From positions 10,284 to 74,283 of the IMG/VR virus record IMGVR_UViG_3300030000_000409: a DNA stretch of 64,000 nt. The stretch is one strand, 5' to 3'. Under the pieces are notes generated by a model that searched no databases, was not told the DNA's origin, and was given only the letters and a program-made list of their open reading frames with translations. The stretch comes from a virus. Taxonomy: Duplodnaviria > Heunggongvirae > Uroviricota > Caudoviricetes. The position numbers were made by a program, and so were the translations under genes. Below are positions 479-37,764 of this stretch, one piece after another. The first letter of the stretch is position 1; the number at the start of each line of letters is the position of its first letter.

Positions 479-1097
479 TTTTAAAAATGGTACAGTGTCA
501 TTAGAATTTTTTAGAAGAGTGCTAAAAGAAATAAAACACAAACCAGATAGACGACATACTCTTTTAGATTCGCTAAGTGACAATCAGTTTTCATCTAAAA
601 AGAGAATAGTTGAACTTATTGATAAACTGAATCTTAGCAAAGAAACAGAAGTAGTTATCTTTGGGTGTTGGTATGGTAGTGTATTAATACCGTTGCTATG
701 TAATGACTTCAAAAGAATTACGGGAATAGATAAAGATGATGATTCGATTAAGACATCCAAATCTAATCTTTTCAATGGGTTTCCACATATAGATTTTATA
801 ACAGATGATGTGTTCACGAGATACTTAGAAAGATATAAACGTACAAGTCTGATTATAAACTGTTCATGTGAAAATATGAGGCCAATGAAAGATTGGCCAT
901 GGTGGGGTGAACTGAAAACTAACAGTTATTTTGCACTTCAATCTACAAACATTGATATAACCGAAGATCAACGAAATTGTGTCTATTCAATGGACGAATT
1001 TAAGAATCAATTGCCAAAATCGTTTAAGATTTTGTATGAGGATGAACTTACTGATGATAGAGGGATAAGATATTCTCTAGTTGGACGAATCAATTAA
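459..1097 (+). CDS. class I SAM-dependent methyltransferase
   Basis: Motif I-like VVIFGCWYGSVLIPLL and motif II-like ITGIDKDDDSI. The start overlaps the carbamoyltransferase stop, so the two genes are likely co-transcribed. Confidence 0.5.
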   Translation: MRNIMIDFKNGTVSLEFFRRVLKEIKHKPDRRHTLLDSLSDNQFSSKKRIVELIDKLNLSKETEVVIFGCWYGSVLIPLLCNDFKRITGIDKDDDSIKTSKSNLFNGFPHIDFITDDVFTRYLERYKRTSLIINCSCENMRPMKDWPWWGELKTNSYFALQSTNIDITEDQRNCVYSMDEFKNQLPKSFKILYEDELTDDRGIRYSLVGRIN

Positions 1098-4201: not shown

Positions 4202-5812
4202 ATGTCAAACTTTTACGTTGATACCGTTGCGCCAAAAATCTCCAAGCAAGTAACTCCTCAAACTGAAAAAATTCCAGGTCGCGAATCAGAAATGGTTGCG
4301 AACAATGCTGGTGGTCAAGTTTTTGCTCTTGACATGTGGAGCTACTTGGATCGATTCTTGATTCTCGGAAGTGATAAACCTTCCTACTATGCAACTGCAC
4401 AGAAGTTGACAAAAGATGCAGCTAAAAATGTCTCAGTTTGTATCAGTGCAGACGGTGTGAAAACTGTTAATCGCATTGTTGAAATCTCTCAAGGTGGTCG
4501 TGCTCCTAAGAATGATTCAGCAGTATTTGCTCTTGCAATGTGTGCAGTTTCCGGTGATGCCGAAACTGTTGCTGCTGCTTATGATGCACTATCAAAGGTT
4601 GCACGAATCGGTACCCACTTGTTCCAATTCGTTGATGCAATAAATTCAATGGGTAAATGGAATGCTGCTGCTAAACGCGGTGTTGCTGCTTGGTATACTA
4701 AGCGTGATGAAACTCGTTTGGCTGTTCAACTCTTGAAATATCAATCACGTAATGGTTGGTCTCACCGTGATGTCTTGCGTCTTGCTCACATCAAGCCAAC
4801 AAACGAATCACAGTCAGCATTGTTCCGTTATGTAACCAAGGGTGCTGAAGGTGTCGAACAAGGAACCATTGTTCCACAACTTTTGATTGATTTCGAGACT
4901 TTGAAGCGTGGTGTAGATTCTAAGAAGGTGATCAGCATCATCGAATCTAACAAGGATATTTCATGGGAAATGATTCCTACTGAATTCCAAAAAGACGTAA
5001 ATGTTATGGCAACACTTATCCCTGGTATGGGTGTTACTGCACTGATTCGTAAGTTGGGTCAACTAACTTCTTTGGGTTTGGCTAAACCTCTTTCCACTGA
5101 ATTGAAAGCAATCGTTGATAAGTTGACTGATGTTGCTGCAATTAAGTCAGGACGTGTTCACCCAATCACTATCTTGAATGCATTTAACCAATACAAACAA
5201 GGTCATGGTGATAAAGGTTCATTGACTTGGACTCCATCTCAACATATTCTTGATGCATTGGATGCTGCATTTTACGATGCATTTCAGTTCATTGAATCAA
5301 CTGGTCAGGGTCACCTTATCGGTGTTGATTGTTCTGGTTCTATGTTTAGCTACCAATGTATCGGTGCTAGCAATATCACTGCCGCAGAAGCAGCTGCTGT
5401 AATGGCTTTGGCTGTTGCGAAACGTGAATCCAATTACTGGATCGGTGGATTCAACACTCGTATGGGTGAATTGAAGATTTCTCCATCTATGCGTCTTGAT
5501 GCAGTTCTGAATGTTATGCGTAAGTTCTCTTGGGGTGGAACTGATTGTTCTCTTCCAATGGAACATGCTATCCAACAGAAAATGAGCAACGTTAACAAGT
5601 TCATCGTCTTTACTGACAATGAAACTTATGCAGGTAAGCGTCAGCCTGTGCAAGCTTTGGCTGATTACCGTAAGCGCTATGTTCATGATGCTAAGTTGAT
5701 CGTATGTGGAACTTCGGTTACCAACTTTACGATTGCTGATCCTAAGGATCCAGGCATGTTGGATATTGCAGGATTTGATTCTGCTGTACCTCAGTTGATT
5801 CAGAGTTTTTGA
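4202..5812 (+). CDS. rsr: Ro60-like TROVE-domain protein with C-terminal vWA (MIDAS) domain
   Basis: LDRFLILGSDKPSYYATAQKL and DSAVFALAMCAV match conserved Ro60/Rsr TROVE segments (LxRFLxxGSExGTYY, PMLFALAIC). The C-terminal GVDCSGSM is a vWA DxSxS MIDAS motif. GCT/GGT/CGT/GTT-rich codon usage resembles highly expressed phage genes. Confidence 0.75.
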   Translation: MSNFYVDTVAPKISKQVTPQTEKIPGRESEMVANNAGGQVFALDMWSYLDRFLILGSDKPSYYATAQKLTKDAAKNVSVCISADGVKTVNRIVEISQGGRAPKNDSAVFALAMCAVSGDAETVAAAYDALSKVARIGTHLFQFVDAINSMGKWNAAAKRGVAAWYTKRDETRLAVQLLKYQSRNGWSHRDVLRLAHIKPTNESQSALFRYVTKGAEGVEQGTIVPQLLIDFETLKRGVDSKKVISIIESNKDISWEMIPTEFQKDVNVMATLIPGMGVTALIRKLGQLTSLGLAKPLSTELKAIVDKLTDVAAIKSGRVHPITILNAFNQYKQGHGDKGSLTWTPSQHILDALDAAFYDAFQFIESTGQGHLIGVDCSGSMFSYQCIGASNITAAEAAAVMALAVAKRESNYWIGGFNTRMGELKISPSMRLDAVLNVMRKFSWGGTDCSLPMEHAIQQKMSNVNKFIVFTDNETYAGKRQPVQALADYRKRYVHDAKLIVCGTSVTNFTIADPKDPGMLDIAGFDSAVPQLIQSF

Positions 5813-9488: not shown

Positions 9489-12400
9489 TTATTTGTTCTT
9501 CAAAAGATCAATTTCAGCTTTGAGCTCTTTGATAGCTTCAATTAACAATGGCACTATCTTACTGTAATCAACAGTTTTAAATTTTTCACCGTCTAACTCA
9601 ATAGACTCAGTAACAATTTCTGGCATAATACTATTTACTTGATCTGCATTAATACCGTAATCATGTTTACCTGCTTTCATTTCAGTATGTTGGAAACCAT
9701 GCTTCCATGTAAATGTACCACCATCCAACTTAGAAATCATTTCAAGAGGATTTTGAATACGTGTGAAGTTTTCTTTTAATCTTGGATCAGAATATGCAGA
9801 TACGTTACCAGCAGCAACCGTATTTCCAGATGGGTCAGTGTACCATGACCAAGCTGCACGAGACCAACCACCAATACCAAAGTATCCATCTGCACGAACA
9901 CCCATCTTGATAGCATATGTATCATTGTAAAATGATAAACCAGCTAAATTAGTATCGCCAGCTCCAGATGCTCTACACACAAAAGAACCTGGTGATGTAT
10001 CATTGACAGCCATTCCAACACCACTTGTTCTACCAGTTATCAAGCTCGTCTGAGCAGTAGCGCTTAAGTATGTAGCAGTACCTGCATTTCCAGAAATGTT
10101 GGTTTGATCACCGGTATTAACACCAGATAGAGTAGTTATACCTAATTTAGTTTTAATCGTGGCGGCAGTTTCATCACCAGTATTGCTACCAGAAACTGCA
10201 TCAAGTTTAATTTTATCAGCAGCTGACATGAAACCGTTAATAGCGGTAGTTACTACAGCATGAGCAGCACCATTGGAACCAACGTGGGCCAATGGTGCAC
10301 TTGCAGCAATTGCGGCAGCTTGTGCACCATTAATGGCTGACGCTTGAGCTGTTGATACTGGCTTATTAACATCTGATATATTATCTACGTTACCTAATCC
10401 AACATCAGCCTTAACCAATGTTACTACACCTGTCTTACCAGCAACAGAATCAACTGCGCCAGAAGTAATGTAAACATAACTACTACCAGACCATCTGTAA
10501 GTCTTGTTGGTATCTAAAGCAACATAAATCTTACCTGATTCACCAGTTGCTGGGAATGCTGCTAAGTTGGCAGCTTCGATAACATCATCAACATAACTTG
10601 GCAACTGAGTTGTTGGAACTTTTCCAGTATTATCAAGTGTTGCAACTCCATTTAATGCGCCCAAAAGAGAACTTGCAACCCTACTAGTAGAATCAATAGC
10701 ATTAATTATTATGTCTGCTGAACCGTTAAAAGAAACCCCGTTGATAGTACGGGCTGTTTGCAACGTTGTTGCTGTTGCAGCGTTACCTGAAATAGTAGTC
10801 TGTATTTGGTGAACGTGATCTGCTCTAGCAGCAGTAGTACTAGTTCCAACAGCAGCAGTTCCATTATTTAATGGGGTTGTTGAAGAAAGACCGGTAATAG
10901 AATTAAATGATGTTCCAGTGATAGCTCCGGTAACTGCGAGTGAGCCAAGAGTTCCAAGAGATGTTATGTTAGGTTGTGCGGCAGTTTGAAGTGTACCAGC
11001 AAATCCAATAGCAGATAATATTCCAGTGCTAGGAATAAAAGAAAGTTTTGAATTTGAAACGTTCAATGTTTGATCGCCTGAAATATCACTCACCCATACT
11101 GGATAAACAGCAGTAGATGGAAGAACATCATTCGTTACATTAGATGCTGCAGATGAAGATGCAGAGACAGTTGATGTTGAGATACCAGTTACCAAACCCT
11201 TAGCATTAACTGTCACAATTGGAATTAATGTAGCAGAACCAAATGTTCCAACATTGGAATTTACTGTAGCCAATGTAGCATTTATTGTAGCATTTGCACT
11301 ACCATTAAATGATGCTGAACCAGATATATCAGCAGCTAATGTGATAGTTCTTGATGTTGCAAGTGCATTTGCAGTAGAAGCATTTCCAATTAAGCTAGCA
11401 GTTATTGTTCCAGCTGAAAAATTACCAGATGTATCTCTTGAAACTATAGTGGATGCAGTATTTACAGATGTTGCATTAGAGTCTATGATTATATTTCCAT
11501 TGACGCCATCAGGATTCGTTATGGATAATCCTACACCAGTAACAGCGACAGAACGAGAAGCACTAGCACCACTAGCTATTTTAACAATTAAACCATTTGA
11601 TGATAATCCAGTGACAGATGTAAGCAATGTGTTTAATGGTTGTGCATCAGTAATTCCATAACCTGTTAATGTGGTTGGAGTATTGACAATCGTTGACCAC
11701 GGTTGAGTTGAAGATGCAGAAATAACTCTACCGTAAATATCAACTGTTACATTTGAATAAAGTCCAGCAGATACACCAGTAGCTGCCAAATCAATAGTGT
11801 CAACATCAACGGTAATTCTTGAAGATGATGCAGTACCGACACTGAATGTATTACCAGATTTTGTTAAACCAGCACCAGCAACTAATTCACCAGGTCTACT
11901 GAACACTGAGAATGCTAATGGTGAAGTACCTAAAACTATGGTGCCATACGTTACTAAGATCCAAGAACTGTTTCCATTTAATGTTCCAGTTTCAACATAT
12001 ACAAGGTCACCAGCAGCAACTTCATTGGTTGGAGATCCATCAAAGTCAGTAGCTCTTGCCCATGCACCAGAAGAAACAACATAAACACCGTTTTCAGCAG
12101 CATTCGTTTGATCTTTTACCAATACACGTGTTCCAGAACCAGCAATAACACCATCTAAAGTTTGGATACCAGATAATGCAATATTTGCAGTTGTTGAAGT
12201 TAACACTGCTAAATGTGGTGACACACCAGCAGCAATATTATCAACGTAATCTTTTGTTGTTAAATGAGAACCAGATACTGGTGAAGCTCCAGTTACAGGA
12301 GAAGAGAATGTCCAGGAACCGGTAACTGTTTCATTTCCAGCAACTCTCGTAAGAACATTTGCATCTGCGATCTGTGATTCATTTATTGAAAGAGCTGCTT

Positions 12401-21199: not shown

Positions 21200-21781
21200 A
21201 TGATTACAAATTTTTTAATTGAGGGACTAGATAGATTAGGAAAGGATACCCTTATCGATGGATTATTAAATCGATATGGGTATGCTGAAGTCCATCATCG
21301 TAAGAAACCATTATCGCTTTCCTTTTACAACAATTTTGCTACTCCAAATCGTTCAGGTTTACAGCTTTATCAATCTTCGTGTTTCAAACATGACATGCAA
21401 TTATTGAAAGTTTCTGAATTATGTGGTATTAAAAATATCTTCAATCGTGCATGGTTGGGTGAAGCTGTTTATTCAAATCTCTACCGAGGATATGACGGCA
21501 ATTACGTCTTTGAATTGGAAAATGAATGTGATCTTCACAAATTACAATCAACTCGACTGATTCTTTTAATTGAAGATTTTAATACTTCCAAACACTTTGT
21601 TGATGATGGTGACTCATTTGACATTTCTAAACGTGTTGAGGAACAGGACATGTTCGTTAGAGCGTTTGATAAATCATTGATCAAAGATAAACGAATTGTA
21701 TGTGTCACTGATTTTAGGACCGGTCAATTCAAAAGCAAAGAACAAATACTTGAAGAAGTAACAATGGAGATTACCACTTGA
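21200..21781 (+). CDS. 1: deoxynucleoside monophosphate kinase, T4 gp1-like (hm-dCMP/dNMP kinase)
   Basis: IEGLDRLGKDTLIDGL parallels the T4 gp1 P-loop LSGVKRSGKDTTADFI. Start and stop overlap the neighbouring genes, consistent with one operon. Confidence 0.5.
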   Translation: MITNFLIEGLDRLGKDTLIDGLLNRYGYAEVHHRKKPLSLSFYNNFATPNRSGLQLYQSSCFKHDMQLLKVSELCGIKNIFNRAWLGEAVYSNLYRGYDGNYVFELENECDLHKLQSTRLILLIEDFNTSKHFVDDGDSFDISKRVEEQDMFVRAFDKSLIKDKRIVCVTDFRTGQFKSKEQILEEVTMEITT

Positions 21782-22992
21782 AAGTAGCAGTAATTAAATT
21801 GGGGTCCCGCATTTCTTTTAATGCCAATGATACATCCGGGGCAAACGGTGAAGCTCGAAGTATCTGTAAAATGTTGAAGCTTGGTGGAGCCGAAGTTCAT
21901 ATTTACACAAAAATATTGAAGAAAGATAATCTTATCGAAGATTATCATTGGCATTCTTTAAACACTGTAGAAGCATCTAAAGTAAGTGATATTGAAGAAC
22001 GTATTTTTGTTGATAAATATTCAAGCACTTATATTGAACACCGTAAAATTCAATTAGTTGGTGACCTATCTAATATGGATGCATTGGTTGTACTAAATGG
22101 AACAGTTCAATTTTATGGTGGTGAGGAAGATCCAGAACAATTGTTGAATTATTTTATCATCAACAACTTCAAGGGTAAAGTGTTCTACATTTACTGTGAT
22201 CCAGAACTTACATTGAAGCAGGTATGGCCTTCAGTTTCAAAGAAGCCTTGGGCTAGTAACTGGTCACAATCTGATCTTGAGATAACCCGTACAGATATCG
22301 TTTATTTAAGTCAACCACATAATGTTAACCACATTTTAGATGACCTTAAAAAGAACGAAGTTATTCCTCGAGAAATTATTCACTACCCTTTTGAACAGTT
22401 TCCGTGTTTGAATGAACAACTCCCATTCAATCCATCTCCTGAAGTTGATCTATCTTATGGTGGAACAATGCGTGGTGGTAAACGTGAAAAGAAGATGGCA
22501 AGATTTTACTTTGGACATACTTCAGAACTTTCTGTTGAAATGTTCGGTAAGATTAAAGAGGAAGATTTCAACCCTAAAAATATCTTCGGTTTAACAACAC
22601 CAACATTTTCTGGTCCAGTCAAGTACGATGACATGCTTCCTAAAATGAATAAGTCGATGGCACATTGTGTTATCGGTGATCCATATTATGAAAAGATTGA
22701 AGATATGGCACAACGTTGCTATGAATCTATCTGGTCAAATGTTGTGACTTTCATTGACAGTGACATGGATAAGTTACGACGAGTGTATGGTAAAGATAGA
22801 GTTTTGTCTGATTTTCTTTATGTCACAGATCGTCAAGAGCTAGCAGAAAAGATTCTTCTACTCAAGGAAGATAATGATCTAAGAAAACAAATTCTTCAAG
22901 ATCAACTAAAGGCGGTGAACTTCAATCCTGAAAAATACTGTACAGATTTTGTTAACCTTATTAAACTTTTTGCATCACTAAAATATGATTAA
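21778..22992 (+). CDS. bgt: DNA beta-glucosyltransferase (hmC-DNA beta-glucosyltransferase)
   Basis: Collinear with T4 beta-gt as recalled: MKVAVIKLGSRISFN vs MKIAIINMGNNVINF; KVFYIYCDPELTLKQVWPSVSKKPWA vs KIYYLFTDIRLPFSQSWPNVKNRPWA; DLSYGGTMRGGKREKKM vs DVIYGGSFRSGQRESKM; CVIGDPYYE vs LIIGDKNYN. TTG start with GGAG 9 nt upstream. Confidence 0.75.
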   Translation: MKVAVIKLGSRISFNANDTSGANGEARSICKMLKLGGAEVHIYTKILKKDNLIEDYHWHSLNTVEASKVSDIEERIFVDKYSSTYIEHRKIQLVGDLSNMDALVVLNGTVQFYGGEEDPEQLLNYFIINNFKGKVFYIYCDPELTLKQVWPSVSKKPWASNWSQSDLEITRTDIVYLSQPHNVNHILDDLKKNEVIPREIIHYPFEQFPCLNEQLPFNPSPEVDLSYGGTMRGGKREKKMARFYFGHTSELSVEMFGKIKEEDFNPKNIFGLTTPTFSGPVKYDDMLPKMNKSMAHCVIGDPYYEKIEDMAQRCYESIWSNVVTFIDSDMDKLRRVYGKDRVLSDFLYVTDRQELAEKILLLKEDNDLRKQILQDQLKAVNFNPEKYCTDFVNLIKLFASLKYD

Positions 22993-23452
22993 ACTTACAA
23001 TTGGTACTAGAGTTCAAACCTCATTCACTCCTATTGACATGTATGAACTTGTTGTCACAGGTATGAGCGGTGATGGTGATCACTATGAAAAAACTTCTGA
23101 TTATGGTGATCAAGAACAGATAGCTGAATGGATTAATATTCTTAATGCCGTCTCTGGTTTAGGATGGAATGCACGATGTTGTGATGATGACGCGGTTTTT
23201 GCTGCTATTTCAAAGCGTGCTGAAGAATTGGAAACTGACCCCGAAGAAGCGGTAGATTGGTATTCTGATATGGTTGGTAGTGATATCACCTCAAATGACG
23301 GATTACATGCAATGTTTACTGGTGCAGAAGTATTCTGGTATGATCCAGATGGTGAAAAATTTAATGTGAACGTTGAAGGGTTAATCACCCCCGCCTGATT
23401 GAATTTCCCGTAAATACAACGTGCCCGGATTTCGGGAGATAAGGAGAAAAAT

Positions 23453-25312
23453 ATGAAGATAGTTATTTGTTCAGGTGGTACAGGTTCAATTGCATTACAA
23501 ACAGGATTGTACAAAACGTTCCAAGATATTGATGGGGTCGATATCAAAATTTTGATTAATGCATATGACAATGGTAAGTCAACGGGTGATGTTAGACGGG
23601 TTGCTGGAGGTAAAATTCTTGGACCTTCAGATATGCGCAAAAATCAAACCACGCGTTTATCTTTAGAAAATATCAAGTCACCATGGTTAAGCTATCTTGA
23701 TATTCGTTTTACTGAAGAGTCAACTAAAGCTAAACAGTACTGCGAAGAACAGACTGACATTCTTAGAAGTCAAATTACTGATGACATTTCAGAAGTGTAT
23801 GAAGCTATTGACATTTATTTCAAGAAACATTCTGCAGAAAAAATTAACTATACGGATTTTGCTCTAGCTAATATCGTTTATGCAGGCTTATCTATTAAGC
23901 ACAATAATTCACTTCGTATGGCAGGAAGTGTCATGGCTAGATTGATGGGAATTAGTGACAACGTTATTCTCAATGACGACACATCATTGTTTTTAGGAGC
24001 AATCTCTAAGTCAGGTGAACACGTTTCTGATGAAGGTGATATTGTTGCTTGGGGTAAAAAAGATGACCCATTTGTGAATGTCTATTTTACTGATACTGAA
24101 GGATATAGTTTCAAACCAATTTTGTGTGATGAAGCACGAGATGCTTTGATTGATGCTGATCTAATTATTCTTTCTTCTGGAACATTTTGGGCTTCATTGA
24201 TGCCTACTTATGTCAGTATTGGTTTTAAAGAAGCCATGGCACAGACAAAGGCAAAGGTGCTAATGGTTATGAATCGTTTCCCTGATACAGATAGTCCAGG
24301 TCAAACGGGTACGGAAATTATCAATGCACTGGTGCCAAGCATCTTTAAAGAAAAGCAGATTACGATTGTTGCAGACTCGTCTGGTTCTCCACAGATGAAT
24401 GCATTTGAGAAAGATATTTTTAATCTCATTGATAGGTTGTATGTTGACAATTTAATGATGACTGGAGAAACTTCGCCATCTGACATGAAGAAACATAATC
24501 CTATTAAGCTAGCACGACTTGTTGGTGTTGCTTATTTCGGTGATGCTTTAACATCATCTCATTTTATGTTTGATTATGATGACACGTTAGTTGGTAGAGG
24601 TAATAAATTGCCTAAATCATCTAGAGTCAATATTGTTGAACTTAACAGATTGAATTCAAAATTAAAGAACAGTTTATCAATATGCACTGGGAACAGTATC
24701 AAGGCAATCGATTTAAATATTGGTGAATGGCATGTTGATCTTATTAGAAGTATAAATATTTTTGCAGATGGTGGAGTAAATAATTACACTTATCTAGAAG
24801 ATACATCAAGCACCGATGACAATAATAGAAAGATAACATTTAATGGATGTGTAAACGATTCATACATTATTCCAGAAGAAGTTATTAATCAATTGGTTTG
24901 GCGTTTAAGAGATGCTGGAATTCAATTCTACAAAATTGAAATCCGCGGCGGTGTTATGATTTCTATTAAGCCTATTGAACAGGAATATAGAAAACCAATT
25001 CTGACATTAGTCAAGATGATCTTAGCAGAATTTGTGAACATCGAATTGGTAGCTAAATTATCTGGTAGGACCACTATTGAAATAGCTCATAAAGATATTT
25101 CAAAAGCTGATGCACTTAGAAGCATTCTTCAACAACCCAATGTTACAAGTATCACATATGTGGGAGATGAATTGCTAAGTGGTAATGATTCACCCATCGC
25201 AATGTTAGCTCAACAGGATAGTAGAATTAAAACTCTAAATGTATCATCTCCTTCTCAGACAGCATTTTTCCTAAAAACGCTGTCACGTGGAAAGTCATCA
25301 TACTCTTTATAA
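23453..25312 (+). CDS. CofD/YvcK(UPF0052)-family transferase fused to a C-terminal HAD-superfamily phosphatase domain
   Basis: N-terminal MKIVICSGGTGSIALQTGL...INAYDNGKSTGDVRR...GPSDMRKN matches CofD/YvcK motifs (SGGTGT.KLL.GL; DDGGSSG.LR; PGD.RN). C-terminal FMFDYDDTLV (HAD motif I, DxDxT) and YVGDELLSGND (motif IV). Strong AAGGAG RBS. Confidence 0.6.
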   Translation: MKIVICSGGTGSIALQTGLYKTFQDIDGVDIKILINAYDNGKSTGDVRRVAGGKILGPSDMRKNQTTRLSLENIKSPWLSYLDIRFTEESTKAKQYCEEQTDILRSQITDDISEVYEAIDIYFKKHSAEKINYTDFALANIVYAGLSIKHNNSLRMAGSVMARLMGISDNVILNDDTSLFLGAISKSGEHVSDEGDIVAWGKKDDPFVNVYFTDTEGYSFKPILCDEARDALIDADLIILSSGTFWASLMPTYVSIGFKEAMAQTKAKVLMVMNRFPDTDSPGQTGTEIINALVPSIFKEKQITIVADSSGSPQMNAFEKDIFNLIDRLYVDNLMMTGETSPSDMKKHNPIKLARLVGVAYFGDALTSSHFMFDYDDTLVGRGNKLPKSSRVNIVELNRLNSKLKNSLSICTGNSIKAIDLNIGEWHVDLIRSINIFADGGVNNYTYLEDTSSTDDNNRKITFNGCVNDSYIIPEEVINQLVWRLRDAGIQFYKIEIRGGVMISIKPIEQEYRKPILTLVKMILAEFVNIELVAKLSGRTTIEIAHKDISKADALRSILQQPNVTSITYVGDELLSGNDSPIAMLAQQDSRIKTLNVSSPSQTAFFLKTLSRGKSSYSL

Positions 25313-25324
25313 GGATAATCAAAA

Positions 25325-26107
25325 ATGGCAACTGATATAACAGCCGATCTTTACATTATTGCAGCAGGTAAAGGAACACGCATGGGTAATAAGTTGCCAA
25401 AAGCACTTATCCCATTCAATGGAGAACCATGTTTAACACACACACTTAAAAACATAGGACAACATTTCAGAAATGTTTTTGTTGTTATAAATGAAGATAT
25501 TCAAGATGTGTGGGATAGATACAAGTCAGAAATTTCACTTAGTAGTCACCCATTCTCAATGAATGTTCAGTTTATTCCTATCAAATCTGGTTTGGGAGAT
25601 GGACATGCTACCTTAATGGCTCTTGAAAAAGCGCCCGCTATAGCAACATTATCTCCAGAAATAGTAGTATGTTGGGGTGATGTTTATTTTCATCAACCAG
25701 AAATAATTACTGAACTTCTTAGCATGAAGATGTCTTCTAATGGAATAGTTCCAGCTCTACTTGAACAAAATCCGTATGTTACTTTGTTGGTTGATGATAC
25801 TCTAAACTGTATGTCAGCGGATTTCTCAAAATACGGTGAGCAACACCCAAGTGGTTTTCATGATCAATCAGTCTTCAGACTGAAGTATGATGTGACTGTT
25901 GCTGCTCTTTCAAGACTTCATAAAGCATTTTGGAAAAATGGAAGATATGCAACCCCTGGTGGCGAGCTTTCACTGTTGTATATTTTCCATTACTTGTACA
26001 ATCTAGAATGCCCAGTAACAGTATATGAAACTAGTCACTCGACAAAATCTTTTAACACTGACACAGAAGTCAAATTAATACGCGAGGAAATTTTAAATGA
26101 CAAATAG
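25325..26107 (+). CDS. sugar-phosphate/NDP-X nucleotidyltransferase (GlmU/MobA/IspD/CofC-like NTP_transferase fold)
   Basis: LYIIAAGKGTRMGNKLPKALIPF is the canonical NTP-transferase N-terminal motif (h.AAG.GTRM....PK.L). Confidence 0.6.
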   Translation: MATDITADLYIIAAGKGTRMGNKLPKALIPFNGEPCLTHTLKNIGQHFRNVFVVINEDIQDVWDRYKSEISLSSHPFSMNVQFIPIKSGLGDGHATLMALEKAPAIATLSPEIVVCWGDVYFHQPEIITELLSMKMSSNGIVPALLEQNPYVTLLVDDTLNCMSADFSKYGEQHPSGFHDQSVFRLKYDVTVAALSRLHKAFWKNGRYATPGGELSLLYIFHYLYNLECPVTVYETSHSTKSFNTDTEVKLIREEILNDK

Positions 26108-26759
26108 ACAACAGCCCATTCTAATCACATTGACAGCCCCATCTTGTGGAGGTAAAAGTTATCTTCTTAACTACATACGTGACATTGCAAAAATGCCATG
26201 TTTGATCTCAACCACTACAAGACCTCCTCGAGCAAATGAAGTTGAAGGAGTTGATTATTATTTCATCACCGAAGAACAGTCTATTCAGTTAGCAGTTATG
26301 GATCAATTTGCTGAATTAGCAATCTATAACGGTGTTCGATATGGGGTGACACGTAAAGAACTTAAAGAAAAACTTTCATCTGGTTATGCATTCCTGATTA
26401 TCGAACCAGGTGGTCTCGAAGGGTACGTTCAATCTGCTATTGATATGGGTGCGAAGCATCTTAAGTACTACATCCATACTGATCCAGAAACACGCATTGA
26501 AAGATTCTATGATCGCGTGAACAAAGACGTTACAAAATTATTCGGAAAAACTCTTGATCGTGAATATACGAAACTCGATTTAGAAAGTGATACTAAGGAA
26601 ATAATTCATGCATCACTGACAAGGTTCAGAAATATGCTAACAACGGAAATGACATGGGGCAGTGATTACCAATGGGACAGAATACTATTTGGTACAACAT
26701 TTCCAGAAGAAAATTTACAAATCATTCAAAATGATATTAGGGAATTGATTAAAAGCTGA
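26097..26759 (+). CDS. guanylate-kinase-like P-loop kinase
   Basis: P-loop LTAPSCGGKSYLLNYI and STTTRPPRANEVEGVDYYFITEEQ match GMP-kinase motifs (GPSG.GKSTL; TTR.PR.GE..G.DY.FV), plus IYNGVRYGVT. Start overlaps the upstream stop. Confidence 0.6.
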   Translation: MTNRQQPILITLTAPSCGGKSYLLNYIRDIAKMPCLISTTTRPPRANEVEGVDYYFITEEQSIQLAVMDQFAELAIYNGVRYGVTRKELKEKLSSGYAFLIIEPGGLEGYVQSAIDMGAKHLKYYIHTDPETRIERFYDRVNKDVTKLFGKTLDREYTKLDLESDTKEIIHASLTRFRNMLTTEMTWGSDYQWDRILFGTTFPEENLQIIQNDIRELIKS

Positions 26760-26807
26760 CAGTCTATTAAATAAATAAATCATCAAATAACACATAAAGG
26801 ATAACAC

Positions 26808-27236
26808 ATGACAAATACTACTCCCTCTTTCTGGCCAGCTGATATTGAAGATATGCACACTAAATTCGGTGTGAATAAAGTTGTTGCTACTCTCGATAAA
26901 GAACAACTCAAAACATATTTGAAGTTTCGTCTTGACATGGTCCAAGAAGAAGTAACTGAAGCAATGAGTGCATTCGCATCTGGAGATGCAGATGGTGTCG
27001 TTGATGCTTTGATTGACAATATCGTTTTTGCTATTGGTACATTGGATGTTTTCGGAATTGATCCATATGCTGCTTGGAATGAAGTCCATTCAAAGAATAT
27101 GGAAAAATCACCAGGTGTAAAAGCTGGTCGTCCAAATCCATACGGATTCCCTGACCTTATTAAGCCACCGTCATGGCAGGCGCCGGTTCATTTAGATAAT
27201 CTAGGGTTGTTATCTAAAGTATTCCCACAGGAGTAA
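26808..27236 (+). CDS. MazG/HisE-like all-alpha NTP pyrophosphohydrolase (possible dCTPase, a gp56 functional analogue)
   Basis: LKFRLDMVQEEVTEAMSA...DADGVVDALIDNIVFAIGT...WNEVHSKNMEK fits the EE..E/D..DA.D/EVH.SNM.K pattern of phage MazG-like dNTP pyrophosphatases. Confidence 0.5.
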   Translation: MTNTTPSFWPADIEDMHTKFGVNKVVATLDKEQLKTYLKFRLDMVQEEVTEAMSAFASGDADGVVDALIDNIVFAIGTLDVFGIDPYAAWNEVHSKNMEKSPGVKAGRPNPYGFPDLIKPPSWQAPVHLDNLGLLSKVFPQE

Positions 27237-27399
27237 TCATGAATAACCAGGGAGCATCTGCTAAAAAATTCTTATAATGGGACTCCCTGTGTCTGGTAAA
27301 TGCAAATGAAGTATTAAGCGGTAGTTGCTGCCATTTATTGAGTTGAATAGATAATCCAATAAATAAATTATCTATCAATTATCGAGAGCTATTCACATT

Positions 27400-29367
27400 A
27401 TGAAACTACTAGCATTTGCAAATGCACAACATGAACTGAAAGAAGCTTCAGTCAAATCTGAGAATGTCCATCTTGCAATGGACAAAATGATTAAATTCAT
27501 TCAAAAGAAACTTGATGTGAAATTATTAAAGGTACCAGGTGTAGAACATTTTAACAATTCCAGCGACCACGGTTATGGAGTACGTTACATTTTCTCTGGT
27601 TCAACAAAATGTTTAAGATTTAATTGGGCATCTGATGGTCAAGCTGGAAAGTCAAATGAAATTGTGTCAGTTGATATTTTCAATGGAAAAACTTCACACC
27701 CAAATTTCAATGTACATTGTAAAGGAATTTCCTTTGTAAGAGCCCTGCCTGTTATTATTGACATAATTGGTTCACCTTCTTTAGGAAAAGTAACTGCTTT
27801 CCCTGTTAATCCAACTGAAGCAATTTCAGAATCTTTTCTGATTGAAGTCGCACGTGATGCTTTTACTGCTGAACGTGCACTAACTGACTTCCTAAAAAGA
27901 TTAGGAGCAGGTAACGCATTGACGAGATCAGATTTTATCGGATCATATCACATTGTTAATGTTGGTATTTTCGATACCATCATGCGCGATTTCAAAGATT
28001 CTTTTAGTATCTCAGGCAAACGCGTATCAATAAAAGTAGGTTCAAATTTGGGTGATCTGAAAGAATCAATCCTTTCAAAGTCGGGATCTGTAATTGTAAC
28101 CGCTGGTGGTACAGATGAAAATTATTTGAAGACTCCTCAAGAAGATGAACTTGCTGAGGAAGAAGGAAGTGACCACGTTCCATATAGTGATGCATTAGAA
28201 CATCTTGAAGGTCTAGTTACTGGTACTATCAAGGGAGCATTCAATGCTTTGTTTGTTGCTGGTAAAGGTGGATGTTTTTCAGGTGACACAAAGATCAACA
28301 TTGTTGTGAATGATTTAGTTCATACTGTTACGTTTTTTGAAATTGAACAAAGGGTAAAACAGTCATATGGTTTAGCTAGCCTTTTGTTGAATGAGTTTTA
28401 TAAGATGGATGACGTAAAAGTTGAGACTCCAACCGGTTATTTGGACGTTTTGAGCTTTGTTAAGAAATCTGGTACAAAAGCTGTTGTGACTTTTCAATCT
28501 GGAATAGTTCATGAATGTCTTTCCAACCATCTTTATATCAATACCTCCGGTCATGCTGTTGCTGTCTATAATTTATATCCTGGTTCTCCAATAAGAATGA
28601 GGGATGGTACGTTAGATTTTATTAAATCAGTTGCGTTGACTGATGAACCAATGTTAGCATTCGATTTATCTGTTAGCGGTATCGATAGCATTTATGTTAC
28701 GACTGATGGTATTCAATCTCACAACACTGGTAAAACAACCATTGTTGAAAAGGTTTTACATTCACATGGATTGACAGATGGAAACGGTTATTACAAAAAT
28801 ACTGGTTCAGCGTCCGCAATCGGGATTTATCAATCTCTTTACAAAAATAGAAACAGCATTATTCTATTCGATGATTGTGATGGAGCACTATCTGATACAG
28901 ATGCACGCAATCTTATTAAAGCAGCAACTGACACAAAGAAGAATAGAAAAATCGTATGGAATAAAAGAACATCTGGTAGCTATGACCCAAATGACATGAA
29001 TGCTGCTTTGTATGCTGAAGATCCAGATAGATTTCCTACACACTTTGAATTTACTGGTCGTGTTATTTTTATTTCTAACTTACCACTTTCAAAATTGGAT
29101 CCAGATGGTGCTATTAGAACACGTGCCTTCGTGATTAACATCAACCCAACTGATGATGAAATGTACGAACACATGGAAAAAATTCTTCATAACATCCGTC
29201 TTGAAGAAGGTCTTTCTCTATCAAAAGACGAAAGAGAAAACGTGTTTAAGGTTGTCAAAACATCCAAGCGTAAGGGTGATGTATCAATTAGAAAATTGGT
29301 TAGAGCTTTAAATCTAGCAGCAACACACGCACCAGGTTGGGAAAAACTTGTGGACCTGTACGCCTGA
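27400..29367 (+). CDS. SF3/AAA-like P-loop NTPase (655 aa precursor) interrupted by a mini-intein in its Walker A loop
   Basis: After intein removal the Walker A reads VAGKGG|TGKTTIVEKV (GxxGxGKT). Walker B RNSIILFDDCDGAL and motif C-like VIFISNLP. Paralogous to 36796..37764. Confidence 0.65.
   Translation: MKLLAFANAQHELKEASVKSENVHLAMDKMIKFIQKKLDVKLLKVPGVEHFNNSSDHGYGVRYIFSGSTKCLRFNWASDGQAGKSNEIVSVDIFNGKTSHPNFNVHCKGISFVRALPVIIDIIGSPSLGKVTAFPVNPTEAISESFLIEVARDAFTAERALTDFLKRLGAGNALTRSDFIGSYHIVNVGIFDTIMRDFKDSFSISGKRVSIKVGSNLGDLKESILSKSGSVIVTAGGTDENYLKTPQEDELAEEEGSDHVPYSDALEHLEGLVTGTIKGAFNALFVAGKGGCFSGDTKINIVVNDLVHTVTFFEIEQRVKQSYGLASLLLNEFYKMDDVKVETPTGYLDVLSFVKKSGTKAVVTFQSGIVHECLSNHLYINTSGHAVAVYNLYPGSPIRMRDGTLDFIKSVALTDEPMLAFDLSVSGIDSIYVTTDGIQSHNTGKTTIVEKVLHSHGLTDGNGYYKNTGSASAIGIYQSLYKNRNSIILFDDCDGALSDTDARNLIKAATDTKKNRKIVWNKRTSGSYDPNDMNAALYAEDPDRFPTHFEFTGRVIFISNLPLSKLDPDGAIRTRAFVININPTDDEMYEHMEKILHNIRLEEGLSLSKDERENVFKVVKTSKRKGDVSIRKLVRALNLAATHAPGWEKLVDLYA
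28273..28725 (+). mobile_element. mini-intein (151 aa, no endonuclease domain) inserted in the P-loop
   Basis: Begins CFSGDTKI (block A C-x-x-D-T-x-I) and ends ...TDGIQSHN, followed by the +1 Thr. Excising it restores a perfect Walker A, GKGGTGKTT. The intein-free paralog reads GEGGLGKTF at the same position. Confidence 0.7.
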
Positions 29368-29388
29368 TGGAATAAATCAGCACTTTCT

Positions 29389-29396
29389 TATAAATA
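29389..29396 (+). promoter_or_regulatory. T4-type late promoter TATAAATA
   Basis: Exact TATAAATA ~29 nt upstream of the Seg-like endonuclease ATG. Confidence 0.4.
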
Positions 29397-29424
29397 CTCC
29401 TATCTAAATAATAGGAGTATTTTT

Positions 29425-30279
29425 ATGTCTGAAAATAGAAGAGCATCCCAAAGAACATATCACATTATCTATAGAACTACATGTGATATTACGGGTAAAT
29501 GGTATATTGGGATGCACAGCACTGATAAACTTGATGATGGATATTTAGGTTCCGGAATGCACTTATGGAGATCAATTGATAAGTATGGTAAAGATCACCA
29601 TAGAGTTGAAATAATAGAATATCTTTCTGATAGAAAATCTTTATCAGAAAGAGAAAGAGAACTTCTAAAAGAAGCAAAAAAAGATCCACTATGTATGAAT
29701 ATTGCTTGGGGAGGTGAAGGATATTATGATCGTCCTCCTACAACCGAAGAAACTGCTGCTAAACTTTCTAAAGCATCTAAGAATTATGTTCGTACAAAAG
29801 AATGGTATGAAAAAGCTGTTGCTACTAGAATGGCAAATGACGGTTATAATGTTACAAGTGAGACAAAAGAAAAGATTAGAACTGCTCTTACTGGAAAAAC
29901 TCTTACAGAAGAACATAAGCAAAAAATTTCTATTGGTGGTACTGGACAAAAGAGAACAGAAGAAACTTGTAAGAATATTTCCAAAGCTCTTAAGGGAAAA
30001 AAGTTCAAATCTGGATTGGATAGAAAACCAGTATCTAAAGAAACACGAGAAAACACAAGTAAAATTCGTATGGGGCAAAAGCTAACAGAAGAGCAACGTC
30101 AACAGCGGGCATTGAATAAATTGAAACGTATTGAGCTCGGTATTCAAAAAGCAAATGTGCGTCCAACTAAAAAGTGTACGGTTGATGGTATCAAAATTTA
30201 TGCATCTGTTAGAGAGATGGTGAAGGAACTTGGCTCAGGTAAAAATGGAACACATTCTCCTTCATTTAGATTTATTTAG
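29425..30279 (+). CDS. GIY-YIG homing endonuclease (Seg-like) with NUMOD3-type DNA-binding repeats
   Basis: YHIIYRTTCDITGKWYIGMHST...GYLGSG is a GIY-YIG core. Downstream are repeated ..TEE.K.KIS.ALKGK.. modules (NUMOD3-like). Confidence 0.7.
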   Translation: MSENRRASQRTYHIIYRTTCDITGKWYIGMHSTDKLDDGYLGSGMHLWRSIDKYGKDHHRVEIIEYLSDRKSLSERERELLKEAKKDPLCMNIAWGGEGYYDRPPTTEETAAKLSKASKNYVRTKEWYEKAVATRMANDGYNVTSETKEKIRTALTGKTLTEEHKQKISIGGTGQKRTEETCKNISKALKGKKFKSGLDRKPVSKETRENTSKIRMGQKLTEEQRQQRALNKLKRIELGIQKANVRPTKKCTVDGIKIYASVREMVKELGSGKNGTHSPSFRFI

Positions 30280-30299
30280 TTTATGATAAATTTGTGTCG

Positions 30300-30308
30300 T
30301 GATATAAT
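30300..30308 (+). promoter_or_regulatory. early promoter, extended -10 (TGaTATAAT)
   Basis: tgaTATAAT, 7 nt upstream of the ORF at 30315. Confidence 0.45.
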
Positions 30309-31103
30309 TATTTCATGAAATTTTTCACTTCACTAATTAATAAAATGTTTGTTAAAAAAGATGCAGAACGCGAATTTGTTCTAGACCCGGTGACGTCTAG
30401 TGATAGAGCTTTTATTTCCAAGCATATACCCCAAAATAATGCAGATATAACTTGGTCTGGAATGCAAGATGAGAAATACGTTCTACCAACTAATGTCACT
30501 GCATATTATGGAAAAGGTCGAATAAACTTTTTCAAACATAAAGGGCAATTAACTGCTGATGTTGGTTTTTATAACTCAAGTTATGATGCACAACATCCTC
30601 ATATATCTCCAATCACAATCTTTGAAGAGAAAATTTCTACTGATGAAGATATGATTAAACTTAAGGAGATGATAGCATGAGTGAAATAGACACAACGTGG
30701 CATGGTAGCAAACAAGATTTGAATTGGTATGAGCTTTACAAAAGCAATTCAGTAAAAGTAAAAACTAAAAATCATTCTGGTATTGGTGGTCAACCACGTG
30801 GAACATACACCATTAGAAGTATGAAGAAGGTAAGTCCATCTAAAGCAGATTTCACAATTAATTTTGATGGTGGACAGGTAACAGCATCAGTTGATTTAGA
30901 CAATCCCCAAATGGTAGTTGATAAAAAATATGACACTGTGCTTGCGTTCAAATTCTACAGTGGAGATATGCCAATCACAGCGCGTCAAGCATTCAATCTT
31001 TTTCAGATTAGATCAACAAAAGATTTGATTAAGCATAATGTCAGTGTATAATCACTCTATCTTAAATTATTAAGATTTTTATTTTGAAAAGGAGTTAGAA
31101 TTA

Positions 31104-33934: not shown

Positions 33935-34264
33935 ATGAATCAAATTATCAAAAAACGCAAACGTCGCTCAGATAGGCTTCATATTTTATATATGCTGCAA
34001 AATCTGGTGACGTTAGAGTCGTATGTTGGTGTTGCAGTATGCATAGACCGATCTGGTAAAGAGACTTTAGCTGCTAGATGGTCAAGGCATGTAGGACGAG
34101 CATTTAACCAAGACAAGAGCTGGAAACTTTGTGAGTCTATAAGGAACTACGGGCCAGAAGTATTTCACAAAGAGATCATTACTTTTGTCAGAGGAAAAGA
34201 AGCTGCATTTGCTCTTGAGACAGAAATTCGCAAACTTGATAAACCGGAACTGAACACACTATGA
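33935..34264 (+). CDS. small GIY-YIG-domain protein
   Basis: RLHILYMLQNLVTLESYVGVA...RWSRHVGRAFN...E follows the GIY-x10-YIG ... R..H ... N pattern. Confidence 0.45.
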   Translation: MNQIIKKRKRRSDRLHILYMLQNLVTLESYVGVAVCIDRSGKETLAARWSRHVGRAFNQDKSWKLCESIRNYGPEVFHKEIITFVRGKEAAFALETEIRKLDKPELNTL

Positions 34265-34503: not shown

Positions 34504-35144
34504 ATGAAACCAAGAGCCATTTTGAAACAAGACGTTCTTCCCGGTTTTACTCTTTTTACCCCAACTAAAGGGTATGAGAGAATCAAAACGATGTCTGTTG
34601 AAGAAGGTATCTATTTCATTAAACATTATGACAGTACCAAATTAGTGTCTCTTGAAGGACCAGATGGTAAACCTCTATTGATTAAAGATTTGATGGACCC
34701 ACAGGCCGGTCGAATTAAATTATTCAAACGTGGTAAAACAACCTGCATTGGTTGTGGAATCCAAGGGAATCATTTTATGTTGAGCGACACATAAATGATA
34801 AGCGTGACGTTTTCACTTTGAATCTGTATGGAATTAATTCATATGGTAAAGAAGTATTGATGACATGGGATCACATCATTCCAAAATCGCTTAATGGAAG
34901 CAACTCAGCTGAAAATGCGCAATGTATGTGTGCATCATGTAATTCAAGAAAAGGAAACGTTCTTGAACTGTCTGAGATTTTGAAGATTGTTGCTAACCCT
35001 AAAATATTGAAGATGTATTCTTGGAATGCAAATCCAATTGCTAGTCAGACTAGTATTTTGGATACAGTTACGAAAATGAAAAAGACCGTTGAAATTATCT
35101 CAACTCAAATTAGGAACAATGACAGATGCTTAATAAATCATTAA
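34504..35144 (+). pseudogene. HNH homing endonuclease split by an apparent frameshift (Cys-x2-Cys N-terminal part in frame 1, HNH core in frame 3)
   Basis: Frame 1 ends ...KTTCIGCGIQGNHFMLSDT* at 34796. Frame 3 (open from 34737, TTG at 34752) encodes WDHIIPKSLNGSNSAENAQCMCASCNSRKGN, an HNH motif. There is no canonical slippery heptamer at the junction. Confidence 0.5.
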
Positions 35145-36795: not shown

Positions 36796-37764
36796 ATGTC
36801 AAATACAGCACTTCTTTCCCTTGATAGTCGCACAAACAAATGGACAGCAATTTATGCTGGTCAAGTGGTAGCAGCATCTTTCAGTAAGGACTATGTTGTT
36901 AACGGTATTAAAGAAGGTCGATGCGGTAAAGCCAAAAAGCTGAATGTGACAAACGTTCGAGAATTTGGAACCCCCGTTTTTGAACTTGATGCACCAACCA
37001 TTGAATCCTCTGAACGTTTTAACATCAATGAACGTTTTGATTTTCTTTCTGATTTTGTCAGAATGGTTGCTACTGGAACTTCACCTTCTCTCATTGTTAC
37101 GGGTGAAGGTGGTCTGGGTAAAACATTCACAGTCAACAAAACGTTGGTTAAATGTGGAATGAAGAAGATCGATTCTGTCACTTCTGATGGAACCCCTACT
37201 GAAGTATGTGCTCACGGTGGAGATTCAAAATCCTACGTTGTCATTAAAGGCTTCTCTACAGCTAAAGGTCTCTACCGAATCCTTTATGAAAACCGCAAGC
37301 GAATCATTATTTTTGATGATTGCGATGATGTTCTGAAGAACCCAACTGCACTGCTTATTCTTAAAGGTGCATTGGATAGTTATGAAGAACGTGTTGTTGA
37401 TTGGCGGTCTGAAGGTTTCATGGATGATGGTCTCCCTCGGTCCTTCATGTTTGAAGGTGGAGTTATCTTCATCAGCAATCTTCCTATCTATAAAGTTGAT
37501 CAAGCAATCCGCTCTCGTGCAATCTGTGTTGATGTGTCAATGACTGTTGATCAGAAAATCGAACGTATGGGTAACATCATCAAGTCTGGTGATTTTCTCC
37601 CAGATCACAGCGATGAGACTAAAGAAGCTGCTCTCGCATTCCTCACTCGGATGCGGAATGAAGCGAAGGAACTTTCTCTTCGTACTTTGATCTCTGTCAC
37701 GAAGGTTGCAAGTCTCGGAGATAACTGGGAACGTCGAGCAGAATACCTGTTGACTTCTGTCTAA
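36796..37764 (+). CDS. SF3/AAA-like P-loop NTPase, intein-free paralog of 27400..29367
   Basis: Walker A TGEGGLGKTFTV, Walker B KRIIIFDDCDDV, motif C-like GGVIFISNLP, plus RSRA. Collinear with the C-terminal half of the intein-containing ATPase. Confidence 0.6.
   Translation: MSNTALLSLDSRTNKWTAIYAGQVVAASFSKDYVVNGIKEGRCGKAKKLNVTNVREFGTPVFELDAPTIESSERFNINERFDFLSDFVRMVATGTSPSLIVTGEGGLGKTFTVNKTLVKCGMKKIDSVTSDGTPTEVCAHGGDSKSYVVIKGFSTAKGLYRILYENRKRIIIFDDCDDVLKNPTALLILKGALDSYEERVVDWRSEGFMDDGLPRSFMFEGGVIFISNLPIYKVDQAIRSRAICVDVSMTVDQKIERMGNIIKSGDFLPDHSDETKEAALAFLTRMRNEAKELSLRTLISVTKVASLGDNWERRAEYLLTSV

Follow-up and report, generated by a model that had tools for sequence, protein, structure and literature searches.

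We analysed a 64,000-nucleotide stretch of a Caudoviricetes virus (IMG/VR record IMGVR_UViG_3300030000_000409, positions 10,284 to 74,283), called the window throughout, in which the gene for a P-loop ATPase is interrupted by a mini-intein. The precursor gene (27400..29367, on the plus strand with all its parts) is one open reading frame (ORF) of 655 amino acids. Its N-extein (amino acids 1-291, 27400..28272) comprises an N-terminal domain and the first half of the Walker A motif (GKGG, 28261..28272), and the C-extein (amino acids 443-655, 28726..29364) opens with TGKT and continues with Walker B (IILFDDCD, 28858..28881), an FISNLP motif (29062..29085) and a lid domain. Between them lie the 151 residues of the intein (amino acids 292-442, 28273..28725), which starts CFSGDTKI and ends TDGIQSHN. 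Cys1 (28273..28275) falls within block A (CFSGDT), the block-B His86 is at 28528..28530, the block-F Asp131 at 28663..28665, and His150-Asn151 (28720..28725) form the end of the intein. The +1 residue, Thr443 (28726..28728), is the first of the C-extein and begins the TGKTT immediately to the right of the insert (28726..28740).

Deleting the insert in silico gives a 504-amino-acid product in which the Walker A motif, GKGGTGKT, is restored, and the intein termini and restored motif given in the original prediction, which was made from the sequence alone, proved accurate to the base. The DNA junctions are exact. For comparison we fetched eighty further IMG/VR loci with the family alignment as query, plus the contigs of individual proteins; aligned codon for codon on both sides with the empty alleles at L003, L011, L012 and L014, the insert is a clean in-frame insertion of 453 bp. 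Its G+C content (0.351) matches that of the two flanks (0.367 and 0.369). Seven contigs carry the identical intein allele, at least three of them from three separate ENA/JGI samples, and no further copy of the intein family was found in the six frames of the window.

Distribution of the insert among homologues

A search over 5.8 billion proteins returned 104 homologues of the ATPase. Five of them besides the window protein (P0002, P0003, P0008, P0009 and P0101, 647-676 amino acids) carry a homologous insert of 150-158 amino acids at the same codon boundary, starting CLS and ending HHN/TGKT (here and below the slash marks an intein boundary), and two more, P0086 and P0103, end a few residues inside an insert. 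About 96 of the 104 have an uninterrupted G[KRAP]GG[TVSI]GKT at that position and are 476-616 amino acids long, which excludes the possibility, raised with the original prediction, that the segment is present in all homologues. The insert is a presence/absence polymorphism, not a chance motif.

Conserved residues, fold and selection

It is very probable that amino acids 292-442 form a mini-intein of class-1 type, with a HINT domain, between the Gly and Thr of GKGG/TGKT in an AAA+ ATPase. Across six homologous inteins that are 34-49% identical, C1, S3, T6, C82, H86, D131, T143, D145, G146, H150, N151 and the +1 Thr are invariant (six of six). Block A follows the pattern C-x-S-x-x-T, with Cys1 in all six, block F keeps D131 within a(Y/F)DLSV, and block G keeps T-x-DG-x-x-H150-N151; the invariant His86 of block B aligns with the block-B His of gp41-1.

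An AlphaFold model built on the six-sequence alignment (mean predicted local distance difference test score 95.8, predicted template modelling score 0.87) is nearly all beta, with one helix at residues 21-32. When it was compared with the PDB using Foldseek, the top 50 matches were without exception inteins or bacterial intein-like domains (probability 1.00), led by VidaL (6vgv, E = 1.1e-8), Pyrococcus RadA (PhoRadA, TMq 0.85) and gp41-1 (6qaz). In sequence the insert is only 15-20% identical to solved inteins. A phmmer search of PDB sequences matched gp41-1 as its sole family (E = 0.041), with the block-B His aligned. The 151 residues contain no homing-endonuclease domain, since the model consists of the HINT core and one helix and Pfam, PHROGs and NCBIfam returned no nuclease match, in agreement with the earlier description of the element as a mini-intein.

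The intein is under purifying selection. Its nonsynonymous divergence is 0.17 between L002 and L092 and 0.435 between L001 and L002, with synonymous divergence either saturated or about 3.2; the sole estimable ratio of nonsynonymous to synonymous divergence is 0.13, from one pair, as the synonymous sites of the other are saturated. Nonsynonymous evolution is roughly two to three times faster in the intein than in the exteins.

Several observations count against the identification. In the block-B motif, TxxH, the His is essential and the Thr is usual; across this clade the Thr is replaced by Leu (by Ala in P0101). The antepenultimate residue is Ser in the window and His in the closest contiguous relatives, an oddity that is softened by the SHN end of L017 and of many terminase relatives. 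The intein structure is a prediction from an alignment of six sequences. The curated intein models also fail: Pfam Intein_splicing (PF14890) reaches E = 0.97 and 9.7 bits against a cut-off of 35.8, the NCBIfam intein models give no match at E <= 0.01, and the intein alone as query obtained no usable match in Pfam, NCBIfam or PHROGs. The alignment to known intein blocks that was proposed as a check of the original prediction therefore bears out the block-F Asp, the block-G His-Asn and the block-B His but not the block-B Thr, and the hoped-for match to a Pfam intein model was not obtained. The terminase large subunit (TerL), UvsW and gp41 relatives matched by a profile of the six inteins are likewise not matched by Pfam at that position, and we conclude that these misses are a blind spot of the Pfam and NCBIfam models for the whole clade of P-loop inteins. 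Separately, for the multi-intein relatives P0113, P0120, P0138, P0141 and P0179, the detections by Pfam are confined to the other inteins.

The host is an AAA+ ATPase of the T4 NrdC.10 family

The host protein has Walker A and Walker B motifs, an alpha/beta core and a helical lid, and a fold search with the 504-residue model found matches to its ATPase fold that are all AAA+ (NorQ/CbbQ, RFC, Cdc6/ORC, NSF-D2 and dynein). PHROG 1250 ("unknown function") matches amino acids 444-651 of the precursor only (E = 1.8e-27) and stops exactly at the intein. By tblastn, related genes occur in more than 1200 genomes of T4-like phages at about 30% identity, annotated as nrdC.10, as "36.7 kDa protein" or, wrongly, as "thioredoxin"; a weak AAA match of the nrdC.10 product, whose role is unknown, was noted long ago (PMC1524935). 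The host is an AAA+ ATPase of the T4 NrdC.10 family (PHROG 1250). The original prediction named the element correctly: it is a mini-intein of a well-known class, to which it adds the NrdC.10-like AAA+ proteins as a new host family. The label "SF3/AAA-like" previously given to the host holds in its second part: the fold is AAA+, and no SF3-type fold or motifs are present. An identity as an SF3 helicase is ruled out by the generic AAA+ fold and the NrdC.10 family membership. A profile of the spliced ATPase searched against PDB sequences gave chance-level matches only (for example, a kinesin P-loop at E = 0.01).

The N-terminal domain has no Pfam match and no recognisable fold, the structural matches aligning about 130-290 of the 504 positions and all being AAA+. 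An extra segment of about 90-120 amino acids lies in or is added to this domain in L005 (~580..800), the N-gene of L006, P0056, P0058, P0076, P0081 and P0098; it accounts for the homologues that reach 556-616 amino acids with an intact Walker A motif.

The window phage is a large T4-like myovirus, placed by the surrounding genes, which encode topoisomerase II subunits, a beta-glucosyltransferase, a long-tail-fibre-like protein and a DNA helicase; the contigs of related phages reach 340-380 kb. Megablast of 27400..30300 against GenBank phages gave no match, and the phage is therefore known only from metagenomes. Upstream of the ATPase gene, a conserved block (21778..27236, also in L001 and L003) encodes a T4-type beta-glucosyltransferase, a CofD-like protein (619-637 amino acids), an NTP_transf_3 nucleotidyltransferase, a guanylate kinase and a MazG/PRA-PH-like pyrophosphatase; its genes may form a nucleotide or DNA-modification cluster.

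Empty, contiguous and fractured alleles at one codon

In relatives of the window phage the same site is empty, holds a mini-intein or is the break point of a fractured gene. Fracture at the same GKGG/TGKT codon was found in L005 (76..3398), L006 (3974..7494)/L007 and L017-L019 (4001..7041). The upstream ORF of these loci ends GKGG/S(I/V/F)SG.T..N.... and then a stop codon, leaving intein N-fragments of 23, 38 and 33 amino acids that all start with Ser1. The middle ORF (351-449 amino acids; at 4932..5987 in L017) has a DUF559/Vsr-type nuclease domain, and the third begins with about 134 amino acids homologous to residues ~18-151 of the window intein before it reads ADGIQ(H/S)HN/TGKT and runs on into the C-extein. 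Dassa et al. 2009 (PMC2677866) described this layout, in which the halves are separated by the gene for a Vsr-like endonuclease, and the enzyme family has been characterised (PMC3239194); inteins broken near their N-terminus are known as atypically split (PMC10189870). The window itself is not fractured, having a single ORF and no Vsr-like gene.

The closest relatives of the window intein are split inteins, at 53-55% identity; the other contiguous inteins reach 45-50%. L017 also has the unusual GIQSHN end of the window intein. Projected onto the window intein, the split falls in the loop at about residues 13-20. Neighbour-joining trees of the inteins and of the exteins, which are unbootstrapped and only indicative, interleave split and contiguous forms. 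As a side observation, residue 1 is Cys in 28 of 28 contiguous relatives examined and Ser in all three split N-fragments recovered, a very small split sample.

A recent change of state can be read from two close relatives. L001 (with the mini-intein, protein P0002; 5932..7995) and L093 (empty, protein P0031; 2373..3974) are 96-97% identical in DNA, and only 3 of 497 extein residues differ. Going outwards from the junction in steps of 100 bp, the mismatches number 5, 2, 2, 2, 2, 0, 3, 4, 2 and 3 on the 5' side and 17, 7, 1, 1, 2, 6 and 5 on the 3' side. The 200 bp immediately 3' of the site thus hold 24 of the 39 downstream mismatches, against about 2.5 mismatches per 100 bp on the 5' side (binomial p = 3e-5), and most of the 24 affect third codon positions. 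An excess of this kind is what co-conversion with a divergent donor would be expected to leave. At least one lineage has recently acquired or lost the nuclease-less intein. No close intein-less relative of the window phage was found, so the co-conversion evidence is limited to L001 and L093. The two also differ by an extra ORF of 145 amino acids just upstream of the ATPase gene in L093 (1899..2336), which is absent from the 96%-identical L001 (~5971).

A free-standing endonuclease gene and a late-promoter-like element

A second mobile element, which does not figure in the original prediction, follows directly. Starting 58 bp past the stop codon of the ATPase gene, 29425..30279 (plus strand) encodes a free-standing GIY-YIG/NUMOD3 homing endonuclease (phrog_314, "homing endonuclease", 6.4e-39; TIGR01453, 6e-13; weak Pfam matches to NUMOD3 and GIY-YIG). 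Orthologues that are 53-62% identical occupy the same intergenic position whatever the state of the intein site (L003, 7577..8410; L011; L017, 7097..7927). Co-occurrence was tabulated over more than 80 loci. A mini-intein occurs with the GIY-YIG gene in the window and without it in L002, an empty site with it in L003 and L011 and without it in L010, L012-L016 and L020, and a split intein with it in L017-L019 and without it in L005 and L006. All six combinations are therefore seen, which rules out linked inheritance and shows that the GIY-YIG gene is independent of the intein. L005 (split, without the GIY-YIG gene) and L003 (empty, with it) are about 88% identical, and the junctions of both elements are exact.

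Just before the endonuclease gene, a T4-type late-promoter-like box (TATAAATA, 29389..29396, plus strand) extends into the 5' arm of a hairpin with 12 perfectly matched base pairs (29392..29403 / 29411..29422, plus strand; minimum free energy -16 kcal/mol, z = -4.7), and the 3' arm contains the Shine-Dalgarno sequence of the gene, AGGAG. I-TevI, e and soc of T4 have the classic arrangement of this kind: the ribosome-binding site is masked in read-through transcripts, whereas late transcripts begin inside the hairpin and can be translated. Judged by sequence, the predicted box and hairpin are an instance of this arrangement. The box TATAAATA occurs nine times in the window, at 1122, 3083(-), 13119, 24751, 29389, 41066(-), 58613, 58675 and 60265, against 4.9 expected (7 of 100 shuffles reach nine), and several copies are followed by an ORF start 25-35 nt further downstream (3059-, 13153, 29425 and 60299). 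These putative sites are consistent with T4-like late promoters in the window phage. With 11 occurrences against 13 expected, the cyanophage-style late motif CTAAATA shows no enrichment. An early promoter had also been suggested in front of each ATPase gene; sigma-70-like matches in 27000..30500 are at chance level (13 against 12.7 in shuffles), and the best one upstream of 27400 scores 9 of 12.

The downstream paralogue

An intein-free short paralogue of 322 amino acids, the size of T4 NrdC.10, lies 7.5 kb downstream (36796..37764, plus strand; PHROG 1250, 2e-52, amino acids 70-319). It was reported in the original prediction and is real, with the motifs GEGGLGKT (Walker A, 37102..37125, plus strand), IIIFDDCD and VIFISNLP as claimed. 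It is 31% identical to the spliced ATPase core (E = 2e-28) and lacks the 290-amino-acid N-terminal domain. The further proposal that it could serve as a template for intein homing by gene conversion is rejected: the proteins are only 31% identical, the best DNA match near the site is 32 nt at 78%, which is no usable homology, and the +1 position is Leu. Leucine at +1 cannot serve as the splicing nucleophile that attacks the thioester. The stretch between the two paralogues seems rich in selfish nuclease genes. An HNH endonuclease ORF (34752..35144; Pfam HNH_5, 1.6e-9) lies 5 kb downstream of the ATPase gene, and an ORF of 109 amino acids (33935..34264) looks by eye like a truncated GIY-YIG protein and has no Pfam match.

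Splicing, mobility and alternative explanations

The steps of splicing proposed here follow the established chemistry of class-1 inteins. Cys1 would attack the carbonyl of Gly291 in an N-S acyl shift, aided by the block-B His86, and Thr+1 would then attack the thioester by trans-esterification to form a branched intermediate. Asn151 would cyclise, aided by His150 and the block-F Asp131, releasing an intein of about 17 kDa, and an O-N shift would yield the 504-amino-acid ATPase with its P-loop intact. The unspliced precursor lacks a functional Walker A motif and should not bind nucleotide properly, so that ATPase activity would depend on splicing. Having no nuclease of its own, the intein would persist by vertical inheritance; in this gene family it may also pass between co-infecting relatives by recombination, possibly initiated by a nuclease acting in trans.

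The insert could instead be a HINT relic that no longer splices, or an insertion domain of the ordinary kind; either the mature protein would keep it, or this ATPase gene would be a pseudogene whose loss is covered by the paralogue at 36796..37764. The failure of the curated hidden Markov models, the missing block-B Thr and the presence of a second family member, which could in principle cover the loss, would fit such a relic. Against it stand the invariance of C1, H86, D131, H150, N151 and T+1 in inteins so divergent in sequence and the excess of synonymous over nonsynonymous change. A domain of 151 amino acids inside GxxGxGKT would abolish nucleotide binding, yet the exteins are conserved (the C-extein is 65-77% identical to relatives); the paralogue is without the large N-terminal domain; and relatives split in two genes at this point can yield an intact ATPase only by trans-splicing. 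We regard a relic as extremely improbable. A functional intein could act as a post-translational switch of the ATPase during infection if it spliced only under certain conditions, for instance under redox control by way of Cys1 and the invariant Cys82. Its position in the catalytic P-loop necessarily makes the precursor inactive, Cys82 lies four residues before the block-B His, and it has been argued that inteins are concentrated in P-loops for functional reasons (PMC4760082). But most orthologues manage without an intein, near-identical phages differ only by its presence, and Cys82 is kept in the Ser1 split forms, in which a Cys1-Cys82 disulfide is impossible, so that we consider such a switch very unlikely.

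For the movement of a functional mini-intein, the neighbouring endonuclease gene offers one candidate, namely that the GIY-YIG enzyme encoded at 29425..30279 mobilises the intein in trans, as an intein version of collaborative homing. The two elements are only about 700 bp apart in the window, the co-conversion-like tract 3' of the site in L001 and L093 shows that recombination moved or removed a nuclease-less intein, and free-standing endonucleases of T4-like phages typically cut a neighbouring gene (PMC2988022). This explanation is nonetheless improbable, because the intein states and the GIY-YIG gene occur in every combination among relatives and because an empty P-loop stands beside the endonuclease gene in L003 and L011, which makes the uninterrupted site an unlikely target. 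A better, still tentative, case can be made for the window mini-intein being a re-fused fractured gene, in which the two parts of an intein, separated after about 20 residues by a Vsr-like (DUF559) gene, were rejoined when the nuclease gene was precisely deleted. L005, L006 and L017-L019 are arranged in just this way at the GKGG/TGKT codon. Their intein sequences, the nearest to that of the window, interleave with contiguous forms in the tree and in L017 share the GIQSHN end, and their split point falls in a loop of the window intein. The C-terminal part of the intein also stands at the N-terminus of the protein in 99 of 149 representatives of the wider population (see below), although some of these may be ORFs cut at contig ends. 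An unbootstrapped neighbour-joining tree does not give the direction, and the reverse, a mini-intein serving as the substrate invaded by a Vsr-like nuclease, is equally possible; moreover, re-fusion would require an extra substitution, from the Ser1 of the split forms to the Cys1 of the contiguous ones.

Taken together, it is conceivable, if rather unlikely as a whole, that the NrdC.10-like gene of large T4-like phages keeps every stage of intein and endonuclease association at one codon (empty, contiguous with Cys1 and no nuclease, and Ser1/Thr+1 split after about 20 residues by a Vsr-like gene), with the window mini-intein either still mobile by way of a nuclease in trans or made by re-fusion. 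If this were true, the family would be a natural system for the entry and exit of endonucleases at a non-canonical site of inteins.

The wider population of phage P-loop inteins

The six-intein profile was searched exhaustively against 1.84 billion representative proteins and matched 938 proteins at E <= 1e-3, of which 113 reached E <= 1e-10. All full-length matches inspected, a sample of the matches, are inserted in Walker A. Their junctions are mostly GK/C...HN/T or S, with GG/C...HN/TGKT in the same ATPase family and RQ/C...HN/SGKS in some terminases, and the hosts identified by Pfam are T4-type terminase large subunits, UvsW-like helicases, DnaB/gp41-like helicases and ClpX-like AAA proteins. 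Among 149 representatives, 22 are contiguous, all with Cys1, and 99 have the C-terminal ~110-135 residues of the intein at the very start of the protein; the latter are naturally split inteins or 5'-truncated ORFs, some of which may be cut at contig ends. The +1 residue is Thr in 96 relatives, Ser in 38 and Cys in 8. P-loops are a documented hotspot for inteins (PMC4760082), and together with the Walker A insertion of the profile relatives this places the window intein in a large and known population of phage P-loop inteins.

The window example leaves the existing understanding of inteins unchanged and adds the NrdC.10-like AAA+ proteins as a host family. The main interest lies in its relatives, with their three allelic states, short-N-fragment Ser1/Thr+1 splits and traces of recent transfer, and in the inability of the standard models to detect the clade. 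It escapes Pfam and NCBIfam: genes of this kind are annotated as hypothetical proteins that are too long and lack a P-loop, and a split gene appears as three ORFs with no relation to one another. How inteins are gained, lost and fractured can be studied on the closely related empty, contiguous and fractured alleles. For engineering, the split relatives (N-fragments of 23-38 amino acids, Ser1/Thr+1, VidaL-like) are candidate thiol-independent trans-splicing tools, and the contiguous form in the window is a natural "fused" reference.

Comparison with known systems

Known phage P-loop inteins (gp41-1, those of TerL, and those of UvsW/UvsX such as VidaL) share with the window intein the HINT fold, VidaL and gp41-1 being in its top three structural matches, as well as the small size, the lack of a nuclease domain, the insertion in Walker A of a phage ATPase and a C/S1...HN/T or S junction. 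The window intein differs in its host, an NrdC.10-like AAA+ protein (PHROG 1250) that we did not meet as an intein host in a non-exhaustive search of the literature, and in its splice point, GG/TGKT, three residues upstream of the GK/T or S of most terminase and helicase relatives. Unlike gp41-1 and VidaL, which are naturally split, it is contiguous.

The T4 NrdC.10 protein (PMC1524935) is comparable to both ATPases of the window in that the C-extein and the paralogue match PHROG 1250 and the nrdC.10 genes at about 30% identity, and the paralogue is also of the T4 protein's size. The intein-bearing copy differs from it by an additional N-terminal domain of about 255-290 amino acids that has no family or fold match.

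Fractured genes, in which a gene for a Vsr-like EDxHD (I-Bth0305I-type) or a GIY-YIG endonuclease lies between the halves (PMC2677866, PMC3239194), have the layout of L005, L006/L007 and L017-L019. The window intein is in one piece, with Cys1 and not Ser1 and no Vsr-like gene, and in its fractured relatives the break is near the N-terminus of the intein (an "atypical" split) and not at the canonical endonuclease site between blocks B and F. Atypically split inteins (PMC10189870) resemble these relatives in the short N-fragments (23, 33 and 38 amino acids), Ser1 and Thr+1, and VidaL is the best structural match to the window intein; the likeness nevertheless belongs to the relatives, since the window intein uses Cys1. 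The relatives, which are putatively trans-splicing, differ in turn from a cysteine-free intein: the Cys before the block-B His is kept in three of three, and the N-fragment of L005 also has Cys5.

In phage T4, mobE mobilises the defunct I-TevIII intron by collaborative homing (PMC2790892; reviewed in PMC2988022). The window likewise has a nuclease-less splicing element beside a free-standing endonuclease gene, and L001 and L093 bear the footprints of recombination at the site; it differs from the mobE/I-TevIII pair in that its two elements assort independently among relatives.

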